64,000 nucleotides of DNA from assembly GCF_037893015.1 (NCBI RefSeq), contig NC_133661.1:187194809-187258808 (forward strand), read 5' to 3'. The DNA comes from Macrotis lagotis. Its lineage: Eukaryota. The position numbers and the translations under genes were made by a program. Every line of letters starts with the position of its first letter. Within the stretch, counting starts at the first letter, position 1. The notes below the pieces were generated by a model. That model had not been told where the DNA came from. It was given only the letters and a program-made list of their open reading frames with translations, and did no database searches. Below are positions 28,913-46,796 of this stretch, in pieces.

Positions 28913-29730
28913 CTATAAAAATAAGGACTTGTTACTAAGTTTTGTATATATAACAATGTAGAAGCTAAAAATCCCTTGGGATAGGATAATTCAGGATATT
29001 GTAGGAGTAATGGCCTAACTCCTACTCCAATGTGATCTAGGATAGTTTTTTCCTTAAAAGGTATTGGGAGGGCTGAGCCTTGAGTGCTCAGCCTACTAAA
29101 GGTAGGGGAGTGGAGAGAGACTTCTGAGGTCTGTCCTCTGTACCTGGAACAGGACTCTGGGGCCCTGACCACATTTGGATCCTGATCACAGTCTAGGCCC
29201 CCCATAGAACAGCCCCCCCCCCCGCCCACCTCAGCCCTGTGACAGAAGGGTGCACTTGTGGTCATTCATAGACCAGGAGGGAAGACAGAGCCTCACACAC
29301 TGAGTTCCTTTGGGGGGGGGGGTGTCCCTATAATCCTCAAAAGCTCAGGAAGCACCCTAAAAACAGGCATGAGCTTGGGAAATGAGTAAACAGAGGAAAA
29401 AAGAGAAACCCCATTGAGAAATACATTGTCTATGATCCAAGAAGAATCAAAATACTCAATCTAAAGAAGAGGAAACACAAGCTTCTGCATCTAAAGACTC
29501 CAAGAAAAACAGAAATTGGGCTCAGGCTATGACAGAGCTCAAAAAAGATTTTTGAAAATCAAGTAAGGGAGTTAGAAGAAAAACTGGGAAAAGAAGTGAG
29601 AGAGATGCAGGAAAAACATGAAAAAGAAGTCAACAGCTTAGTCAAGGAGATCCAAAAAAATGCTGAAGAAAATAACATGTTAACAACCAGCATAGGTCAA
29701 ATGGATAAAACATTTCAAAAAGTTATTAAG

Positions 29731-29888
29731 TGGGGTGACTAGATTGCACAGTGGATAGTGCACCAGCCCTGGAGTCAGGAGTTTCTGAGTTCAAATCTGG
29801 CCTCAGACACTTAATAATTACCTAGCCGTGTGGCCTTGGGCAAGCCACTTAACCCCATTGCCTTGCAAAAAAAAAAACTAAAAAAAAG
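29731..29888 (+). mobile_element. tRNA-derived poly-A SINE nested in HAL1 copy 1 ORF1.
   Basis: TSD aaaaagttatt. Absent at the homologous position of copy 2. Confidence 0.85.
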
Positions 29889-30122
29889 TTATTGAGGAGA
29901 AGAATGCTTTAAAAAGCAGAATTGGCCAGATGGAAAAAGAGATAAGAAAGCTCTCTGAGGAAAACAAATCCTTCAGATCTAGAATGAAGCTAAAGGAAGC
30001 TGTTGACTTTACGAGAAGTCAAGACACAATACTTCAAAACCAAAAGAATGAAAAATTAGAAGAAAATGTGAAACATCTCATTAAAAAAACAACTGATTTG
30101 GAAAACAGATTCAGGAAAGATT

Positions 30123-30290
30123 ATTTATTTATTTATTTGGGTTTTTTAGATTTTTCAAGGCAATGGGGTTAAGTGGCTTGCCCAAGGCTACATGGCTAGG
30201 TAATTATTAAGTGTCTGAAGTTGGATTTGAACCCAGGTACTCCTGACTCCAAGGCCGGTGCTCTATCTACTGTGCCACCTAGCCACCCCC
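30123..30290 (-). mobile_element. tRNA-derived SINE with (TTTA)n tail, nested in HAL1 copy 1 ORF1.
   Basis: TSD caggaaagat. Absent in copy 2. Confidence 0.85.
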
Positions 30291-30463
30291 CAGGAAAGAT
30301 AACCTAAAAATTATTGGGATACCTGAAAGTCATTATCAGGAAAAGAGCCTTGACATCATTTTTAAAGAATTCCTACAGGAAAATTGCCCAGACATCCTAG
30401 AAGCAGAGGGCAAAATAGGAATTGAGAGAATCCACTGATCTCCCCTGGAAAGAGATCCAAAAA

Positions 30464-30636
30464 ATATTATATTATATTATATTATATTATATTATATTAT
30501 ATTATATTATATTATATTATATTATATTATATTATATTATATTATATTATATCATATCATATCATATCATATTATATTATATCATATCATATCATATCAT
30601 ATCATATTATATTATATTATATTATATTATATTATA
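30464..30636. repeat. (ATATT)n microsatellite (~35 units) with an (ATCAT) interruption block.
   Basis: Direct reading. Lies inside HAL1 copy 1 at the ORF1 end. Confidence 0.95.
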
Positions 30637-32291
30637 GGAATATTTTAGCCAGAAATATTATAGCCAAGTTCCAGAACTCCTAAGTCAAAGAGAAAATATT
30701 ACAAGCAACCAGAAGGACACAATTTAAATATCATGGAGCTGCAATTGGGATCACACAGTACTTAGCATCAACTACATTAAGGGCTCATAGGGCTTGGAAT
30801 ATAATATTTCAGAAGACAAAAGAGCTTGGAATACAACTGAGAATCAACTACCCAGCAAAACTGAAGGTCTTTTTCCAGGAAAAAAGATGGACTTTTAATG
30901 AACCAGAAGAATTTCAAATGTTCCTGTTAAAATAGCCAGAGCTGAACAGAAAATGTGATCTTCAAATACAGGACTCAGGTGAAGCATAGAGAGTGGAGGA
31001 GAAGGGTAAAATATGAGAGATTTAATGATGATGAACTGCATGTATTCCTGCATAGAAGAATGATACTGATAATACTCAGAAACTTCTCATTTAATAGAGC
31101 AGGTAGAAGGAGCTTTTATAGATGAAGCACAGGAGAGAGCTGAATTTGAAGATATAATATATTGTAAAAATGGAGTTAATGGCTAAAAGGGAAATGTAAT
31201 GGGAGTAAGAGAAAGGAGAGGTGGAATAAGCTAAGATATTTTATATAATAAGATTTTTTAATTACAATGAACTATTTCAATGATATGAAAGGGGGGAAGG
31301 CAAGGGGGGATGAGGCAACCTTCACTCTCATCAGAGATGGCTCGGAGAGGAAACAGCATATATACTCAATGGGGTATGACATCTAGAGTAAGAAGGAGAG
31401 AAGCGGGACAGGGAGAGGGAGAGGATGTGAGTGATGGAGGAGAGGGTGGACTGTGGGGGAGAGTAGTCAGATATAACACATTTTCCTTTTTACTTCTAGC
31501 AAGGGGCTGGGATTGGATGGCCTGTCTGGGACCACAGGGCCTGGTGGTTGCTGGGCCTTAAGGGTGGTATGTGGATTTGGGGCCTCTTGGCTCCAGGGCC
31601 AGTGATCAGTCTACTGTGCCACTCAGCTACCCTACAGCATATTTAAGAAGAGGGACAGAGTGAAAGGTGAAAGAAAATATAGTGTATGGTAGCGGGGAAG
31701 TACAAATGGAGGGAGTTGTGATCAACAATGGCAACAGTGGAAAAATGTGGAAGTAGCTTTTGTGATGGACTTATCATAAAGAATGTGATCCACCAGCAAC
31801 AGAGCTAGTGGTGTTGGGACACAGACTGAAGTATATTTATTGTTATTATTATTATTATTATTAGTAGTAGTAGTAGTAGTAGTATTAGTATTAGTATTAT
31901 TATTTATTTTGGTTTTTGGGGAACACTGGGGTTGGGGTGACTTGCCCAGGGTCATACAGCTGAGTGATTGTTGGGTATCTGGGGCCGGATTTGAACTCGT
32001 GTGCTCCTGGCTCCAGGGCCGGTGCTCTGTCCACTGTGCCACCTAGCTGCCCCTATTATTATTTTTTTATTTAAATTTTAATTATTTTCTCTTAACTTCA
32101 TTGATCATGAGGGTCTGTCTATATTTTTGGGGGAGGGGGTATTATATTTACTCTTAAATAGGAATATTTTAGTAATGTATAAAAACATCATTTGTACAAA
32201 AATAAAAATAAATAAAAAACAAAAAAAGAGAGAGATAATTTAAGAATAATTGGACCAACTAAAAGTCATGATCAAAAAAAGGTACTGGGAA

Positions 32292-38678: not shown

Positions 38679-38739
38679 CAAGAGCAAAATGTTCTTTTCT
38701 GTGTCTCCTGAGAAGCTTCATCAGCTCATGGACAAATGT
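38679..38739 (-). CDS. PARP14-like: Candidate small macro-domain exon (61 nt; TFVHELMKLLRRHRKEHFAL).
   Basis: Strong acceptor (ttattctttctttctgttag|) and donor (|GTAAGGGGG) 61 nt apart. One frame is open. The phase (+1) matches the next candidate exon 75 nt downstream. Weak similarity to the macro-domain helix preceding the SIAxPAIxxG motif. Confidence 0.4.
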
Positions 38740-41072: not shown

Positions 41073-41956
41073 ATCAAATATTGTGATCTGGTATTGATAT
41101 TACTATTGCTTTAGGATGCCACAACCATACCTATCCAAGATGGGCAAACATAACCAATAAATATTTATATGTTCTGACTATTCCATTGATTGCTCCCTGT
41201 CATTTTCCCTCTCCTTGGATCTCCCTATTCCTTGAGACACAACAATATTGAAATCAGGTCAATTAATAACCCTACAATGGCCTCTAAGTGTTCAAGGGAA
41301 AGGAAGAGTTAATCAGTGTGACAAATTTCATTATTATCTTATTTTAAGAAATGAACATAGCCACTACAACCTTTAGCAATACTACCCTGATCAGTCAGCA
41401 GCCATCAGGATCAAGATAAGATCCTCTAATAGGAAAAAGATTATAAATCACTACAGGCCCAGGTGACAGTTAACATTTTTAGGCAATAAAATATTTTTAA
41501 ATTAAGGTATGTATATTTTTTAGACATTATATTATTGCACATTTAATGGACTAGAATGCAGTATAAACATAATATTTATGTAAACAAGGAAACTAAAAAT
41601 TTCATGAAACTTGCTTTACTGGGGTATTTACCTTATTATAGTGCTCTGGAATCAAACCTGCAATATTTCTGAGACATGTTAGTATATGTATACATTTTAT
41701 TAGATTATAAACTCCTTGAGCTGAAAAAGACCAAATTTGAATTTCCTCCATTGTTCAGCACAGTGTTATATGCACTATGTACTTAATAAATTTTTAATGA
41801 ATGAATGAGTAAACTCCCAAAAGAGCTTAAACAAACCAAGGTATCTACTTTAAAGACCCCTAAGAATGTTAGAGGAATTTTTTTTCTAGTCTTAGAATAA
41901 GGGGAACAAAAAAAAAAGATTCCTCAAATCCCCTTTCAGTTCTGTAATTTTATCAA

Positions 41957-44641
41957 GAATTGATGATTCTGGTGGAGCCAAGATGGTGACAAGAGAGCAA
42001 CGTCTCTTAGAAGCTCTCTCATAAAACTTATAAGCTAAGGACTCTAAGTAAACTTTCAAGAGACAGAACCCACAGAGGGACCCAGTGAGGCAGTTCTCCT
42101 ACTCAAGGTAACCTGGAAAAGAACAGAAAGGCTCTGCTCCCCCGGGTCAGAGGGGTGGCCCACCAGAGCAAAAGAAATTCAGCCTCCAGGAGGCAGTCCC
42201 AGGGAGCTGGGAGCCGCGGCTCACAGTAGCGGGGGGAGTTTCCTGAGCTATGCCCTGGGAAGCACCGGGTACAAATTGGGGGAACAGCAGGGGGACCTCT
42301 GCCAGAGTGAGCACATGAAGCCCAGCCCTCAGGGCACACAGCGAACAAGTGGTCTTTCCCCAGCCCAGATCCAGGAACAGAAGCAGGCAGAGCCAGTAAG
42401 CAGGACCCCCAGGGCATGAGCCCATTGAACCTAGCGGAGGGGAGTGAAGAGAGACTGCCCAGCTCTGTCCTCTGCCCCTGGAAAAGGACCCTGGAAAAGG
42501 ACTCTGGGGTTCTGACCACATTCAGATCCTGATCACAGTCTAGGCCCCCCATAGAACAGCAGGGCACCCTCCACCTCAGCCCCATGACAGAGGGGGGCGT
42601 ATATGGTCATTCACAGACCAGGAGGGAGGACAGAGCCTCACACACTGAAACCCTTGTGGGAGTGTCCCAAAAGCTCAGGAAGCACCCCAAAACCAGGCTC
42701 AGACTGGGAAAATGAGCAAGCAGAGAAACAAGAGGAAGACCATTGAGAAATATTTTCCATATGAACCCAAGAAGGATCAAAATACTCAGTCTGAAGATGA
42801 GGAAGCACAAGTTCCTGCATCTAAGGACTCCAAGAAAAACAGAAATTGGGCTCAGGCTATGACAGAGCTCAAAAAAAGACTTTGAAAATCAAATGAGGGA
42901 GTTAGAAGAAAAACTGGGAAAAGAAAGGAGAGAGATGCAGGAAAAACATGAAAATGAAGTCAGCAGCCTAGTCAAGGAAATCCAAAAAAATGCTGAAGAA
43001 AATAACATGCTAAAAACCAGCTTAGGTCAAATGGATAAAACAGTTCAAAAAGTTATTGAGGAGAAGAATGCTTTAAAAAGCAAAATTGGCCAGATGGAAA
43101 AAGAGATAAGAAAACTCTCTGAGGAGAACAAATTCTTCAGACAAAGAACAGAACTCAGGGAGACTGATGAATTTACAAGAAATCAGGAATCAATACTTCA
43201 AAACCAAAAAAATGAAAAATTAAAAGAAAATGTGAAATATCTCATTGAAAAAACAACTGATATGGAAAACAGACTTAGGAAAGATAATTTAAAAATTATT
43301 AGAATACCTGAAAGTCATGATCAGGAAAAGAGCCTTGACATCATTTTCAAAGAATTGCTACAGGAAAATTGCCCTGATAGTCTAGAAGCAGAGGGCAAAA
43401 TAGAAATGGAGAGAATCTACCGATTGCCCTGAGAAAGAGATCCCAAAAAACCAACCCCTAGGAATATTATAGCCAAGTTCCAGAACTCCCAAGTCAAAGA
43501 GAAAATATTACAAGCAGCCAGAAGAACATAGTTCAAATACTGTGGAGCTGCAGTCAAGATCACACAGGACTTAGCAGCAACTACATTGGAAGCTCATAGG
43601 GCTTGGAATATAATACACCAGAAGGCAAAAGAGCTTAGAATGAAGCCAAGAATCAATTACCCAGCAAAACTGAATGTCCTCTTCCAGGAAAAAAGATGGA
43701 CTTTCAATGAACCAGGGGAATTTCAAATGTTCCTGTTGGAATGGCTAGAGCTGAACAGAAGGTTTGATCTTCAGATATAGGACTCAGGTGAAGCATAGAG
43801 ATTGGAGGAGAAGGGGAAAATATGAGGGACTTAACGATGATGAACTGCATGTATTCCTGCATAGAAAAATGACACTGATAATACTCATATGAACCTTCTC
43901 AGTTAATAGAGCAGGTAGAGGGAGCTTTTATAGTTGAAGCACAGAAGAAAGCTGAATTTGAAGATAAAATATGGTGTAAAAATGTAGTCAATAGAAAAAA
44001 AAGGGAAATGTGATGGGAGAAAGAAAAAGGAGAGGAGGGAATAGGCCAAGATATCTCATATGATAAGTTTTTTCTTTAGTACAATGAGCTATTGCAATGA
44101 TATGGAAGGGGGGAAGGCAAGGGAGAATGAGGGAATCTTCACTCTCATCAGAGGTGGCTAGGAGAGGAAACAGCATATATACTCAATGGGGTATAGACAT
44201 CTAGAGTAAGAAGAAAAGGGGGGACAGGTGGAAGGGGGGGGATGTGAGTGATGGAGGAAAGGATGGACCCTGGGGGGAGAGTGGTCAGATATAACACATT
44301 TTCCTTTTTACTTCTAGCAAGGGGCTGGGATTGGATGGCCTGTCCAGGACCATAGGGCCAGGTGGATGCTGGGCCTAAGGGGTGGTAGGGGGCTCAGGGC
44401 CTCTTGGCCCCAGGACCAGGGATCTGTCTGCTGTGCCACTCATCTACCCTACAGTAGAGTCAGAGTGAAAGTAGAGAGAAAATATAGTATACATGGTAGT
44501 GGAGAAATATGAAGGGAGGGAGTTGTGATCAGCAATGGCAACAGTGGAAAAATATGGAATCAACTTTTGCAATGGACTTACCATAAAGAATGTGATCTAT
44601 CCGCGACAGAGTTGTTGGTGTTGGAACAAAGACTGAAGCAC

Positions 44642-44687
<46 letters not shown>

Positions 44688-45204
44688 TGGGGGGGTGCAG
44701 GGCAAATGGGGCTGGGTGGCCTGCTCGGAGCTACATAGTAGGGTGATCTTTGGGTGTCTGAGGCTGAATTCGGACCCAGGTGCTCCTGGCTCAAGGGCCA
44801 ATGCTCTGTCCACCACCCAGCCACCCCTACTACCATTATTACTATTTTTATTTTATTTTGGGTCTTTTTTTTCTTTTTTTTTTTTTGGTTTTTGCAGGGA
44901 ATTGGGGTTGGGGTGGCTTGCATGTCACACAGCTGGGTGATTGTTGGGTGTATGAGGCCAGATATGGGCTCGGGTTCTCCTGGATACAGGACTGGGGCTC
45001 CGTCCATTGCGCCATCTGGCCATACCTACAATTATTACTATTATTTTTTATTTTAATTTTTTTTCTCCCCTTTACTTTATCGCTCAAGCGAGTCTATATT
45101 TTGTGGGGAGAGGGGGTATTCTGTTTACTCTTAAACAAGAATATTTTATTAATGTATAAAAAAACATTATTTGTATAAAAAGAGAATAAATAAATATAAA
45201 AAAA
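41957..45204 (+). mobile_element. Half-L1 (HAL1-like) composite element, copy 2.
   Basis: Composition in order: L1 5' end (ggtggagccaagatggtgac...), a GC-rich 5'UTR, ORF1 (42893-43432, 179 aa, coiled-coil ORF1p-like, terminated), a ~1 kb non-ORF2 tail, (TTA)n, two SINE-like modules, and an A-rich tail. Flanked by the TSD aagaattgatgattct at 41940-41955 and 45207-45223. Confidence 0.7.
44645..44688. repeat. (TTA)n microsatellite internal to HAL1 copy 2. Its homologue in copy 1 is (TTA)n(TAG)n at 31846-31896.
   Basis: Direct reading. Confidence 0.9.
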
Positions 45205-45223
45205 AAGAATTGCTGATTCTTGC

Positions 45224-45390
45224 GGGCGGCTAGGTAGCATAGTGGATAAAGCACTGGCTTGGAGTCAGGAGTACCTGGGTTCAAATCCAGACTCAGACAC
45301 TTAATAATTACCTAGCTGTGTGGCTTTGGGCAAGCCACTTAATCCCATTTGCCTTACAAAAACCTAAAAAACAAGAAACAACAACAACAA
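45224..45390 (+). mobile_element. tRNA-derived poly-A SINE inserted about 15 nt into the intron after the donor of the 45413-46796 exon.
   Basis: TSD gaattg(c/a)tgattctt at 45209-45223 and 45396-45410. This is the same target as the TSD of the adjacent HAL1-like element. Confidence 0.85.
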
Positions 45391-45412
45391 AAAAGAATTG
45401 ATGATTCTTACC

Positions 45413-46796
45413 AATTCAGTTTTCTCCTTACAGGCTGAGACCTCAGAGGACAAAGAATTTGTAGTTTCTGGCACTTGAATCTTCACCAAACATTGGAGTT
45501 CTTTAGCAAAAGTGAAAAGAACTGTGGCTCCAATCCCAGAAAGGTATTCTTGTACTCCTCTGTGCCATACAGGGATGCTTCTCACAGTCAATAAATCTAG
45601 ATCAGCTTGAACAACTCCTTTGGCCTCTTTTACATGTCTTCTCAGTCCTTTTAGTTTCAAGGTTAAAGTAGAATGACTCGTCTGAATCCAAATATTCACC
45701 TTTAAGTCTCCCCAGTTCATTATCTGAAACAGATTTTCTTTTGCTTCAGCCAGTTCTGGTCGAGGGGAAATAATTCTGTCTTCAGTAATTGAATAACTCA
45801 TCAAATATTCCCTAATATTGGTCTCTGCCTCAGTTACTTCAACCCTAGTGCCCACTATGACCACTGAAGTCAAGATATCTTGCAGTGATTTGACACTATA
45901 AAAAGTGACTTTCTTTTGACTTCTTAGTGCTATCAGTAGAGCTTCCCATTCCAGGCCATTGACTGCCCACTGGACCTCTTCCCCTATATCAACCTTCTTC
46001 TCATAAACTAAACTCTTCAGTAAATTTTCTGCTTGAACCAGTTCTCCAAAGTCAAGCCCCCAAATCCCAACTCCATCAGAAATGTTCAACACTGCTGAAA
46101 TATCTCGAGCAAGGAAAAAATTTTCATTAAAGAGTTCTTCCTGGAGGCTTTGGATAAATTGCACTTGGAATGGGGAAAGTGAGACTGGCCAGTTCTTAAA
46201 ACCAACCAGCAGACTATAAAACTGCTTCTCCACCTCAAGTACATCTTTTCGGCGCCCCTGAAAAGTGATCATACCAAAAGGACCTTCCTCCAAGGTTATA
46301 GAAACTGGAGTGTGAGGAAAAATAAACATTTTGTTTATTGTGTTTTTGACCACTGTGTATCTAGGCAGATGGAGAATAGGATGTTCCACACACACTGGCT
46401 TTTCATTGAAAGTCATTTCCTGAACATATTGTAAAAACATCTTCACTGCCTCAGTTGGCCCTACAAAGCGTGGACCTTCATATTCTCGTATGGTTGCAAA
46501 AGACTTCACTAACAATGGTTGTTTTTTTAAAACATTCAGAATATCTGAGTTGTTCTCATAGTGAACAGCATATCTCTTCTTAATTTTCTGAAAAGTATCC
46601 TCCACAGCTTTCTCCCAGTTGGATGGGTCTAGTTGTTCCCCTTCTGCTAAAAATTTAAGCACTCCCAAAGAAGCACAAGTTTGGAATACACAGTCTATCT
46701 TCCTTAAGTCTTCTTCAAACTCTTGGAAAACAATTGGGGAGTCATTAAGGTACTGGACAAAAGCTGGGTCTTCTTTCTGACAGAGACTAATGACTT
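45413..46796 (-). CDS. PARP14-like: PARP14-like gene, second large coding exon (KH-like / pre-macro region).
   Basis: 434-codon open frame. Acceptor ttttcctttctcctag| lies at 46797-46800. Donor AAAACTGAATTG|GTAAGA lies at 45411-45412. PFQVQFIQSLQEELF...FLARDISAVL and ITFQGRRKDVLEVEKQ regions align with human PARP14 SPEIFQFLQQVNWKEF...FIAQKILAL and LCLKGPSADVYKAKCEIQ. The ORF-track tail LLLLFLVF is read-through into an intronic SINE poly-A. Confidence 0.75.

Follow-up and report, generated by a model that had tools for sequence, protein, structure and literature searches.

The locus and its host gene

The stretch of DNA analysed here, which we refer to as the window, comprises 64,000 nt of the genome of the greater bilby (Macrotis lagotis) and contains part of a PARP14-like gene on its minus strand and, within one intron of this gene, two retroelements lying on the plus strand (Table 1). 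The large exon next to them has an open frame of 462 codons, whose phase is fixed by a mini-exon at 49755-49731, and is an exact substring of two bilby protein models, XP_074091079 and XP_074091082. Its translation gave weak matches to PARP14 KH families in a Pfam scan and is 78% identical to a Petaurus protein, an orthologue that came from an exhaustive representative search; a PDB sequence search was empty. Both protein models also contain the next exon downstream, contiguous and exact, with the junction ...KEKTEL/TFVHELM... (here and below, a slash marks an exon border, an element border or a cut). The donor sequence G/GTAAGA is the same in the five marsupials of the orthologue alignment, that is, the bilby and four others, and, going by the NCBI gene models and this conservation, the donor is spliced in the bilby.

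A preliminary description of this DNA, made from the sequence alone, had reported a coding exon with an intact donor, and both the junction in the two protein models and the conservation of the donor in four other marsupials bear this out. The exon end given there, 45413, has to be corrected: the last base of the exon is 45412, and the donor GT occupies 45411-45410 on the minus strand. The same description had placed about 3.4 kb of retroelement near the start of the intron, which agrees with what is found, since retroelement sequence begins at intron +20. The two elements are antisense to the PARP14-like gene and, together with two extra copies of the target-site duplication (TSD), make up 3,422 nt of the 6,672-nt intron. 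On the gene strand, a U-rich tract lies at +20, and candidate alternative splice sites within the SINE are a GTAAGG at 45357-45352, the GC at 45223-45222 and a T-rich stretch with TAG/G near 45364 that resembles an acceptor.

Table 1. Retroelements, target-site duplications and host-gene features of the bilby locus. Positions are those of the window.
Feature	Position	Strand	Details
Next coding exon downstream	38679..38739	-	TFVHELMKLLRRHRKEHFAL; sets the intron at 6,672 nt
TSD copy X0, 16 nt	41955..41970	+	AAGAATTGATGATTCT; 5' side of the LINE, preceded by the original left flank TTTTATC
HAL1-like LINE-1 derivative, ORF1-only, 3,234 nt	41971..45204	+	5' end GGTGGAGCCAAGATGG
LINE 5'UTR	41971-42711	+
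LINE ORF1, decayed	42712-43780	+	1 frameshift, 2 stops
LINE 3' region, non-coding, 1.4 kb	after 43780	+	(ATT)n run, two antisense SINE-like segments, then AATAAA
LINE A-tail	45198-45204	+
TSD copy X1 (middle)	45205..45221	+	AAGAATTGCTGATTCTT; follows the LINE A-tail and precedes the SINE 5' end
SINE with putative tRNA-like head and A-rich tail, ~170 nt	45222..45392	+	body from 45224; tail CCTAAAAAACAAGAAACAACAACAACAAAA
TSD copy X2	45393..45409	+	AAGAATTGATGATTCTT; on the gene strand, intron +3 to +19, including donor +3..+6 (AAGA)
Splice-donor GT of the 1.4 kb exon	45410..45411	-	TTG/GTAAGA; used in both NCBI protein models
Coding exon, 1,385 nt	45412..46796	-	KH-like repeats; PARP14-like gene LOC141521955, Macrotis lagotis
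Acceptor AG of the 1,385-nt exon	46798-46797	-

The two retroelements

The longer element carries an ORF1 that matches the Pfam families Transposase_22 (7e-10) and Tnp_22_dsRBD (2.1e-5), both above the curated cut-offs. The 864 nt that follow it (43781-44644), scanned in three frames, gave no Pfam hit at E<=1, and only 1.4 kb of sequence comes after ORF1. The part beyond 44644 was read as frame translations only, and no ORF of at least 130 aa resembling ORF2 is present anywhere in the window. A second, 5'-truncated copy at 29143-32227 matches the first in ORF1, in the region behind it and at the 3' end (2,184 aligned nt, 87% identical), so that the ORF1-only architecture is present in two copies within the window, the only two seen there, and is a trait of a family, not the product of a one-off deletion. 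The L1 ORF1 domains, combined with the lack of a Pfam hit in the scanned part after ORF1, uphold the earlier naming of this element as HAL1-like. HAL1 elements are L1-derived and bipartite, retain ORF1, and are probably mobilised by L1 (PMC5786205; PMC4161310). The bilby element shares with them the L1 5' end, the L1-type ORF1 without an ORF2, the poly-A signal and tail, and the TSD; however, the likeness is one of architecture, and the 3' region of the bilby element includes antisense SINE-like segments. It is probably a marsupial or peramelemorphian derivative that arose independently of the HAL1 families.

The shorter element is a SINE, perhaps SINE1_Mdo-like. Box-like motifs can be read in its head (A box TAGCATAGTGG, B box GGTTCAAATCC), and the Rfam tRNA model matches it end to end (1-71) with 22.9 bits and an E value of 0.013, the gathering score being 29; ARAGORN found no tRNA in it. 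At least 28 related copies are present in the window, and the focal one can be aligned with 18 other 5'-complete copies, 13 of which have recognisable TSDs, mostly of 10-19 nt (one of 8 nt is doubtful). Most TSDs of these other copies start A-rich and are preceded by T or a pyrimidine, which is an L1-type signature. In its putative tRNA-like head and A and B boxes, its A-rich tail, high copy number and TSDs of about 15 nt with an A-rich start, the element has the features of the L1-mobilised tRNA-derived SINEs of marsupials. That it is a SINE with a poly-A end and a TSD, as previously claimed, is confirmed at its borders, where the tail adjoins X2 and X1 precedes the 5' end.

A triplicated target site and its empty counterpart

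The motif AAGAATTGATGATTCT(T) is present three times, starting at 41955, 45205 and 45393. The 17-mer AAGAATTGATGATTCTT is found, with at most one mismatch, at 41955-41971, 45205-45221 and 45393-45409, where 0.09 matches would be expected by chance, and three matches were obtained in none of 100 shuffles. The only private difference, an A>C at 45213, belongs to X1. The three copies fall exactly on the borders of the elements: the left junction reads TTTTATC / X0 / GGTGGAGCCAAGATGG...LINE...AATAAATAAATAT(A)7, the middle one X1 / GC-GGGCGGCTAGG...SINE...(CAA)nAAAA, and the right one X2 / ACCAATTC. Each A-tail adjoins a TSD (LINE, AATAAATAAATAT(A)7/AAGAATTG; SINE, ...CAACAACAAAA/AAGAATTG). Both elements lie on the plus strand with their tails facing right, towards the exon, and reading the junctions thus corroborates the earlier statement that the two poly-A ends point to the same flank. 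Since the GC at 45222-45223 may represent additional 5' nucleotides or else have arisen by mutation from a copied donor-complement AC, the SINE TSD may be either 17 or 19 nt long.

Three occurrences of a 15-mer within this motif had already been listed; the number stands, but the positions are really 41957, 45207 and 45395, the first having been given as 41942, an error of 15 nt, and the other two being wrong by 1-2 nt. Similarly, the third copy had been said to run directly into the donor, and the contact between them is real, but X2 overlaps the hexamer GTAAGA and does not merely abut it.

The orthologous intron of Petaurus, Monodelphis, Sminthopsis and Sarcophilus contains one copy of the motif and neither element, with the layout exon/GTAAGAGTCATCAATTCTT/GATAAAATT, and the bilby left flank plus X0 is collinear with this single copy in all four. 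Both insertions therefore took place on the bilby lineage. The base at intron +7 is derived in all three bilby copies, so these descend from one target of that lineage. The preliminary description had proposed such an empty-site comparison as the way to refute its reading of two separate retrotransposon insertions into one target. Carried out on these four marsupials, it returned the predicted TSD structure, and the reading is sustained by the triplicated TSD together with the empty site in four species.

Proposed mechanism of insertion

We consider it highly probable (roughly 0.9) that the locus results from two independent L1-type events of target-primed reverse transcription (TPRT) at one target, in the bilby lineage after the dasyurid split. 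Because three copies of the TSD are present, two staggered-cut events would be needed, and it is from this architecture that we infer them to be separate. On the gene strand, the ancestral site would have read exon/GT AAGA(G>A)TCATCAATTCTT / GATAAAATT. Each time, an L1 endonuclease would nick the minus (gene) strand at 5'-TTCTT/GA-3', between intron +19 and +20, and the exposed T-rich 3' end would serve as the primer from which an A-tailed RNA is reverse-transcribed. A cut in the plus strand would follow 16-17 nt away, at TTCT/T/AC, between intron +2 and +4, and fill-in between the two cuts would duplicate these 16-17 nt. One event would have delivered the full-length ORF1-only (HAL1-like) L1 derivative and the other the putatively tRNA-derived SINE, both presumably mobilised in trans by an autonomous L1. 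The exact nick positions are likewise proposed, as the A residues where tail and TSD meet leave room for a shift of a few nucleotides.

With cuts at +19/+20 and at +2 to +4, the duplicated segment takes in donor positions +3 to +6. Even so, the donor consensus of 9 nt is untouched, because fill-in would rebuild the intronic part of the donor and leave the first foreign base at +20. In the published model, the first nick falls at TTTT/AA on the antisense strand, with a second one 15-16 bp downstream at TNTN/AA (PMC2836564), whereas the bilby sites would be TTCTT/GA and TCTT/AC, 17 nt apart. In the empty-site alignment, the minus-strand TTCTT/GATAAAA (TC/AAGAA on the plus strand) is a pyrimidine-run/purine variant of TTTT/AA.

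Order of the insertions and alternative explanations

In the order proposed earlier, the LINE inserted first and the SINE then entered an A-rich target that had been regenerated, but the reverse order would lead to exactly the same final sequence. We lean somewhat towards the opposite one, with the SINE inserting first and the LINE following at the original nick, an order that needs no new target because the LINE re-uses the untouched TTCTT/GA. With the SINE first, the later nick is of the pyrimidine/purine type, and with the LINE first it falls at T/T on the border between tail and TSD, so the endonuclease preference is slightly better matched by the SINE-first order. A LINE-first order, in which the A-tail beside the 3' TSD acts as the new A-rich target and the same 17 nt are duplicated again, is a tentative alternative that is also compatible with the final architecture. 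It would leave the context of the second, plus-strand nick (TCTT/AC) unchanged, and later Alu insertions are known to concentrate in A-rich stretches of elements already in place (PMC2836564). However, a spacing of 15-17 nt is kept in this order only if the minus-strand nick falls at T/T, no more than about 1 nt from the tail/TSD border; a consensus-like nick at T9/AT, at the 5' end of the tail, would produce a spacer of at least 24 nt, and, by the published model, a duplication ending inside the motif (PMC2836564).

Dating does not favour the LINE-first order either, and divergences do not separate the two orders. From a consensus built on 19 aligned copies of the window, the focal one included, the SINE diverges by 7.9% overall and by 5.4 +/- 2.0% when CpG sites are left aside. 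Between the two LINE copies the divergence is 13.9% (JC, non-CpG), and SINEs nested in the second one (29143-32227) show 5.2% and 8.9% divergence, which bounds the age of the first LINE copy only to about 5-9% or less. No usable LINE outgroup was found in the four orthologous loci, the sole match being one of 72.5% ORF1 identity in Monodelphis. The mismatches between TSD copies are uninformative on order, as the single A>C is confined to the middle copy whichever element came first.

The target itself might be an intrinsic double-nick hotspot, since it forms a near-palindrome, AAGAA-N7-TTCTT, which presents 5'-TTCTT/purine on both strands, 17 nt apart. If so, the first- and second-strand L1 cuts would both be fixed by sequence, which would explain why two unrelated elements produced the same duplication within 1 nt, and, were this a general property, sites of this kind would be informative on what determines where the second strand is cleaved in TPRT. 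Among the other SINE copies of the window, 9 of 14 have a purine next to the end of the TSD, and no pattern like TTCTT is seen there; the idea thus finds no local support, and we regard it as unlikely.

Far less probable are the explanations that do away with two successive insertions on one chromosome. Precise parallel insertions at one site are known from separate lineages (27 cases in cetaceans; PMC10531181), and an X-LINE-X and an X-SINE-X haplotype, each formed at the unmodified target and later joined by a crossover within the 17-nt repeat, would end in the same sequence. This route is very improbable: besides the two insertions, which it needs as well, a crossover would have to fall within 17 bp of homology at a time when both alleles were segregating, and no data point to it. 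We give even less weight to a single complex event or to an assembly artefact. Both 3' transduction and template switching are known side-reactions of L1, through which a LINE-X-SINE unit could arise by read-through, or by a switch from SINE RNA to LINE RNA. However, a transduced flank would be unrelated to the local target, with which the middle copy agrees at 16 of its 17 positions, the bilby-specific +7 base among them, and after template switching the LINE and SINE parts would not be separated by a TSD copy. As for an artefactual concatenation of two heterozygous insertion alleles, the 17-bp overlap would be far too short to cause a long-read mis-join, judging from how assemblers work, and the private substitution in the middle copy also speaks against it.

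Parallels and implications

Same-site L1-mediated insertion has been described between lineages, with 27 precise cases in cetaceans (PMC10531181), and insertion hotspots in resident elements are also documented (PMC2836564). Likewise, the bilby LINE and SINE would have entered at one nick, to within 1 nt, and they share one TSD. In contrast to the cetacean cases, they lie on one chromosome lineage, in a tandem X-LINE-X-SINE-X arrangement, and do not represent homoplasy between species; the target also differs from those of known same-site cases in overlapping a splice-donor consensus. Fixed transposable elements within 20 bp of an exon are rare in human, amounting to 30 of 54,136 full-length AluY and 7 of 10,134 full-length L1, and exon-proximal AluY copies are strongly biased to the donor side, with only 10% near acceptors (PMC3088655). 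The bilby case, at +20, is also donor-sided, but it stacks two elements (3.4 kb) at one position, with the staggered cut passing through donor +3..+6.

Same-site L1-type insertions, ORF1-only L1 derivatives and donor-proximal transposable elements are thus all already documented, and the bilby locus is a clean but ordinary instance of target-site re-use that implies no new mechanism. Its value would be that of a worked example, in which the L1 machinery cut the intronic half of a donor twice and left the donor intact, because filling in the staggered break restores it. A further point illustrated is that an annotated, conserved splice junction can coexist with 3.4 kb of retroelement in antisense orientation whose first base lies at intron +20. 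X-TE-X-TE-X triplets collected genome-wide could serve to estimate the frequency with which the original nick, as against the new tail junction, is used again, and, for the phylogeny of bandicoots and bilbies, the locus offers two clean presence/absence markers.

A target site filled twice beside a splice donor

The preliminary description of this locus had placed three copies of a 15-nt motif at the borders of two retrotransposons. A motif search and a reading of 41700-45700 found the 15-mer at 41957 (one mismatch), 45207 and 45395; the first had been put 15 nt off, at 41942, and the description otherwise holds. The full-length motif occurs three times with at most one mismatch per copy, against 0.09 matches expected by chance, and none of 100 shuffles gave three. 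The element borders coincide exactly with the motif copies. The sole TSD mismatch is A>C at 45213; whichever element came first, it is confined to the middle copy.

Positions of the elements, target-site copies, junctions and splice donor (window numbering)
Feature	Position	Strand	Description
Left motif copy	41955-41971		match to AAGAATTGATGATTCTT
LINE	41971-45204	plus	3,234 nt; begins with GGTGGAGCCAAGATGG
Middle motif copy	45205-45221		match to AAGAATTGATGATTCTT
SINE	45222/45224-45392	plus	right element
Right motif copy	45393-45409		intron +3..+19; first inserted base, +20
Donor GT	45411-45410	minus	
Exon	46796..45412	minus	first codon completed by G from mini-exon 49755-49731
Left junction			TTTTATC / AAGAATTGATGATTCT / GGTGGAGCCAAGATGG... 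(flank, left copy, LINE start)
Middle junction			...AATAAATAAATAT(A)7 / AAGAATTGCTGATTCTT / GC GGGCGGCTAGG... (LINE tail, middle copy, SINE start)
Right junction			...CAACAACAAAA / AAGAATTGATGATTCTT / ACCAATTC (SINE tail, right copy, exon side)

The empty-site comparison that had been proposed was carried out on the orthologous genomic loci of Petaurus, Monodelphis, Sminthopsis and Sarcophilus, and it verifies the TSD structure. Each alignment contains the exon and one motif copy, followed by the sequence that in the bilby lies left of 41970, with the two alignment blocks overlapping by the 16-nt motif; all four species read exon/GTAAGAGTCATYAATTCTT/GATRAAATT. Exactly one motif copy is present in each locus, all the flanking bases are retained, and neither the LINE nor the SINE was found in any of the four. 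With an empty site in all these species, both insertions are younger than the divergence between the bilby lineage and Dasyuromorphia. At intron +7, the three bilby copies have A where the four other species have G. On the plus strand, this is T at 45403, 45215 and 41965 against C, a change from GACTCTT to GATTCTT at the second-nick site. As the three copies have this A in common, the change arose before either insertion, and a single target in the bilby lineage gave rise to all three.

For two different A-tailed elements to be flanked by three target copies, the DNA must have undergone two staggered breaks. The empty site would put the nick in the minus strand at 5'-TTCTT/GATAAAA (intron +19/+20); the plus strand would have been cut at TTCT/T/AC (intron +2 to +4), at a distance of 16 nt in the LINE event and 17 nt in the SINE event. 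These positions fit the published scheme, with a first nick at TTTT/AA and a second 15-16 bp downstream at TNTN/AA (PMC2836564). The break would have passed through donor positions +3..+6, which fill-in would have restored both times. A T-run/purine rule at second-strand cuts was absent among the other SINE copies of the window, so a palindromic hotspot at the target stays speculative. The GC at 45222-45223, which separates the middle TSD copy from the SINE body, could have arisen by mutation from a copy of AC, complementary to the donor GT; the SINE would then have a 19-nt TSD, with its plus-strand cut precisely on the boundary of exon and intron, and a decayed second copy of the donor (GC-AAGAAT) would be found on the far side of the SINE.

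Alternative readings and the order of insertion

Three motif copies, two A-tailed elements and four empty sites support the reading that one target received two insertions. An origin in one transduction or template switch is effectively excluded: of the 17 positions of the middle copy, 16 agree with the local target, among them the bilby-specific base. Recombination between two independently filled alleles, or a join made in assembly, would be an unlikely origin of the array.

The LINE had been placed first, an order that is not established, since LINE-then-SINE and SINE-then-LINE yield an identical final sequence and dating is indecisive. With the SINE first, its left TSD copy would retain the complete original nick site, which the LINE would re-use. 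With the LINE first, a spacing of 15-17 nt would demand a nick at T/T, on the border between LINE tail and TSD; were the cut made instead at the tail's consensus-like 5' end, the spacer would be at least 24 nt. By a simple odds argument, the two orders stand in the same ratio as the attractiveness of the tail-border site to that of the original site. Weighted by L1 endonuclease preference, SINE first, then LINE is slightly favoured, with a probability of roughly 0.55-0.6, and LINE first, then SINE is the less likely order. Divergence does not decide between the orders: the SINE stands at 5.4 ± 2.0% (non-CpG), the LINE and a second copy of it are 13.9% apart, and the SINEs nested in that second copy, at 5.2% and 8.9%, bound the LINE only to about 5-9% or less.

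The two elements

The initial GGTGGAGCCAAGATGG of the LINE is the conserved 5'-end motif of full-length L1s. The ORF1 of the LINE (42712-43780) has one frameshift and two stops. In Pfam it matches Transposase_22 (7e-10) and Tnp_22_dsRBD (2e-5), both exceeding the curated cut-offs. There is no sign of ORF2 in the 1.4 kb 3' of ORF1, no Pfam match in the forward frames of the 864 nt directly 3' of it (43781-44644), and no ORF2-like sequence anywhere in the 64-kb window. The second copy (29143-32227), 5'-truncated and 87% identical over 2,184 nt, has the ORF1, the post-ORF1 region and the AATAAA/A-tail end in common with the first. Since the two are alike in layout, ORF1-only is a family trait and HAL1-like, the name already proposed, a fair label by layout; ORF1-only L1 derivatives are a known class (PMC5786205; PMC4161310).

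The second copy lies, likewise antisense, in a downstream intron of the gene LOC141521955, split by two later SINE insertions (29733-29871 and 30141-30288). The 3' region of the first (44647-45022) contains an (ATT)n run (44647-44688) as well as a tandem pair of antisense segments resembling a SINE (~44690-44830 and ~44880-45020), 73-77% identical to SINE copies of the window. Only a single such segment is present in the second copy, which suggests that the family 3'UTR captured a SINE fragment, later duplicated in the first.

The window holds at least 28 copies of the SINE family, a very high density. The SINE head gives a full-length match to the Rfam tRNA model (22.9 bits, under the gathering score; E 0.013), and A-box-like and B-box-like motifs are present. 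Alignment of 19 5'-complete copies separates two subfamilies, 8 diagnostic positions apart. TSDs are recognisable in 13 of 18 other copies, mostly of 10-19 nt (one, of 8 nt, is doubtful), and most start A-rich after T or a pyrimidine, which is the signature of L1-type integration.

The host gene and its donor

The exon holds a minus-strand frame of 462 codons, from an acceptor (ttctcctAG, 46798-46797) to TTG/GTAAGA. An exhaustive profile-free search with its translation found a 78%-identical Petaurus breviceps protein, from which a further search reached orthologues in nine marsupial genera, including Macrotis lagotis LOC141521955. Joined to the next exon (38739-38679), the translation occurs without a mismatch in both bilby isoforms, which marks the window as greater bilby and fixes the annotated junction at 45412>38739. 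The donor is intact, as had been stated. The intron measures 6,672 nt, 3,422 nt of which are the two elements and two extra TSD copies.

LOC141521955 lies wholly inside the window (28644-55133, minus strand, ~10 coding exons). Its predicted protein resembles PARP14 and has KH-like repeats, WWE and a PARP catalytic domain; the ~500 N-terminal residues have no listed Pfam domain. The close homologues come from marsupials, crocodilians, lizards and snakes and are labelled 'uncharacterized'; no eutherian protein is among the 12 matches at E <= 1e-50.

The SINE has A in place of the window-consensus G (ccttGcaaaaa > ccttAcaaaaa), which produces a donor-like GTAAGG on the gene strand at 45352-45357 (minus strand; intron +55..+60); the real donor lies 54 nt upstream of it. 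Reading on from the exon, the frame meets a stop (45366-45364) ahead of this hexamer, so its use as a donor would truncate the protein. At 45364-45392 (minus strand; intron +20..+48), the antisense SINE tail forms a T-rich tract ending TTTTTTAG/G, immediately beyond the 19 nt of intron that remain; it resembles a polypyrimidine/AG acceptor motif, and is also a U-rich tract near the donor.

Comparison with known systems

Different L1-mobilised elements hitting precisely the same nick, as at the bilby site, are already documented in cetaceans, with 27 precise parallel insertions (PMC10531181), and resident elements are documented as insertion hotspots (PMC2836564). In human, transposable elements seldom lie within 20 bp of an exon (30 of 54,136 full-length AluY and 7 of 10,134 full-length L1), and only 10% of near-exon AluY lie by acceptors (PMC3088655), a strong donor-side bias to which the bilby insertions conform. 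The bilby locus is, then, an ordinary instance of known processes.
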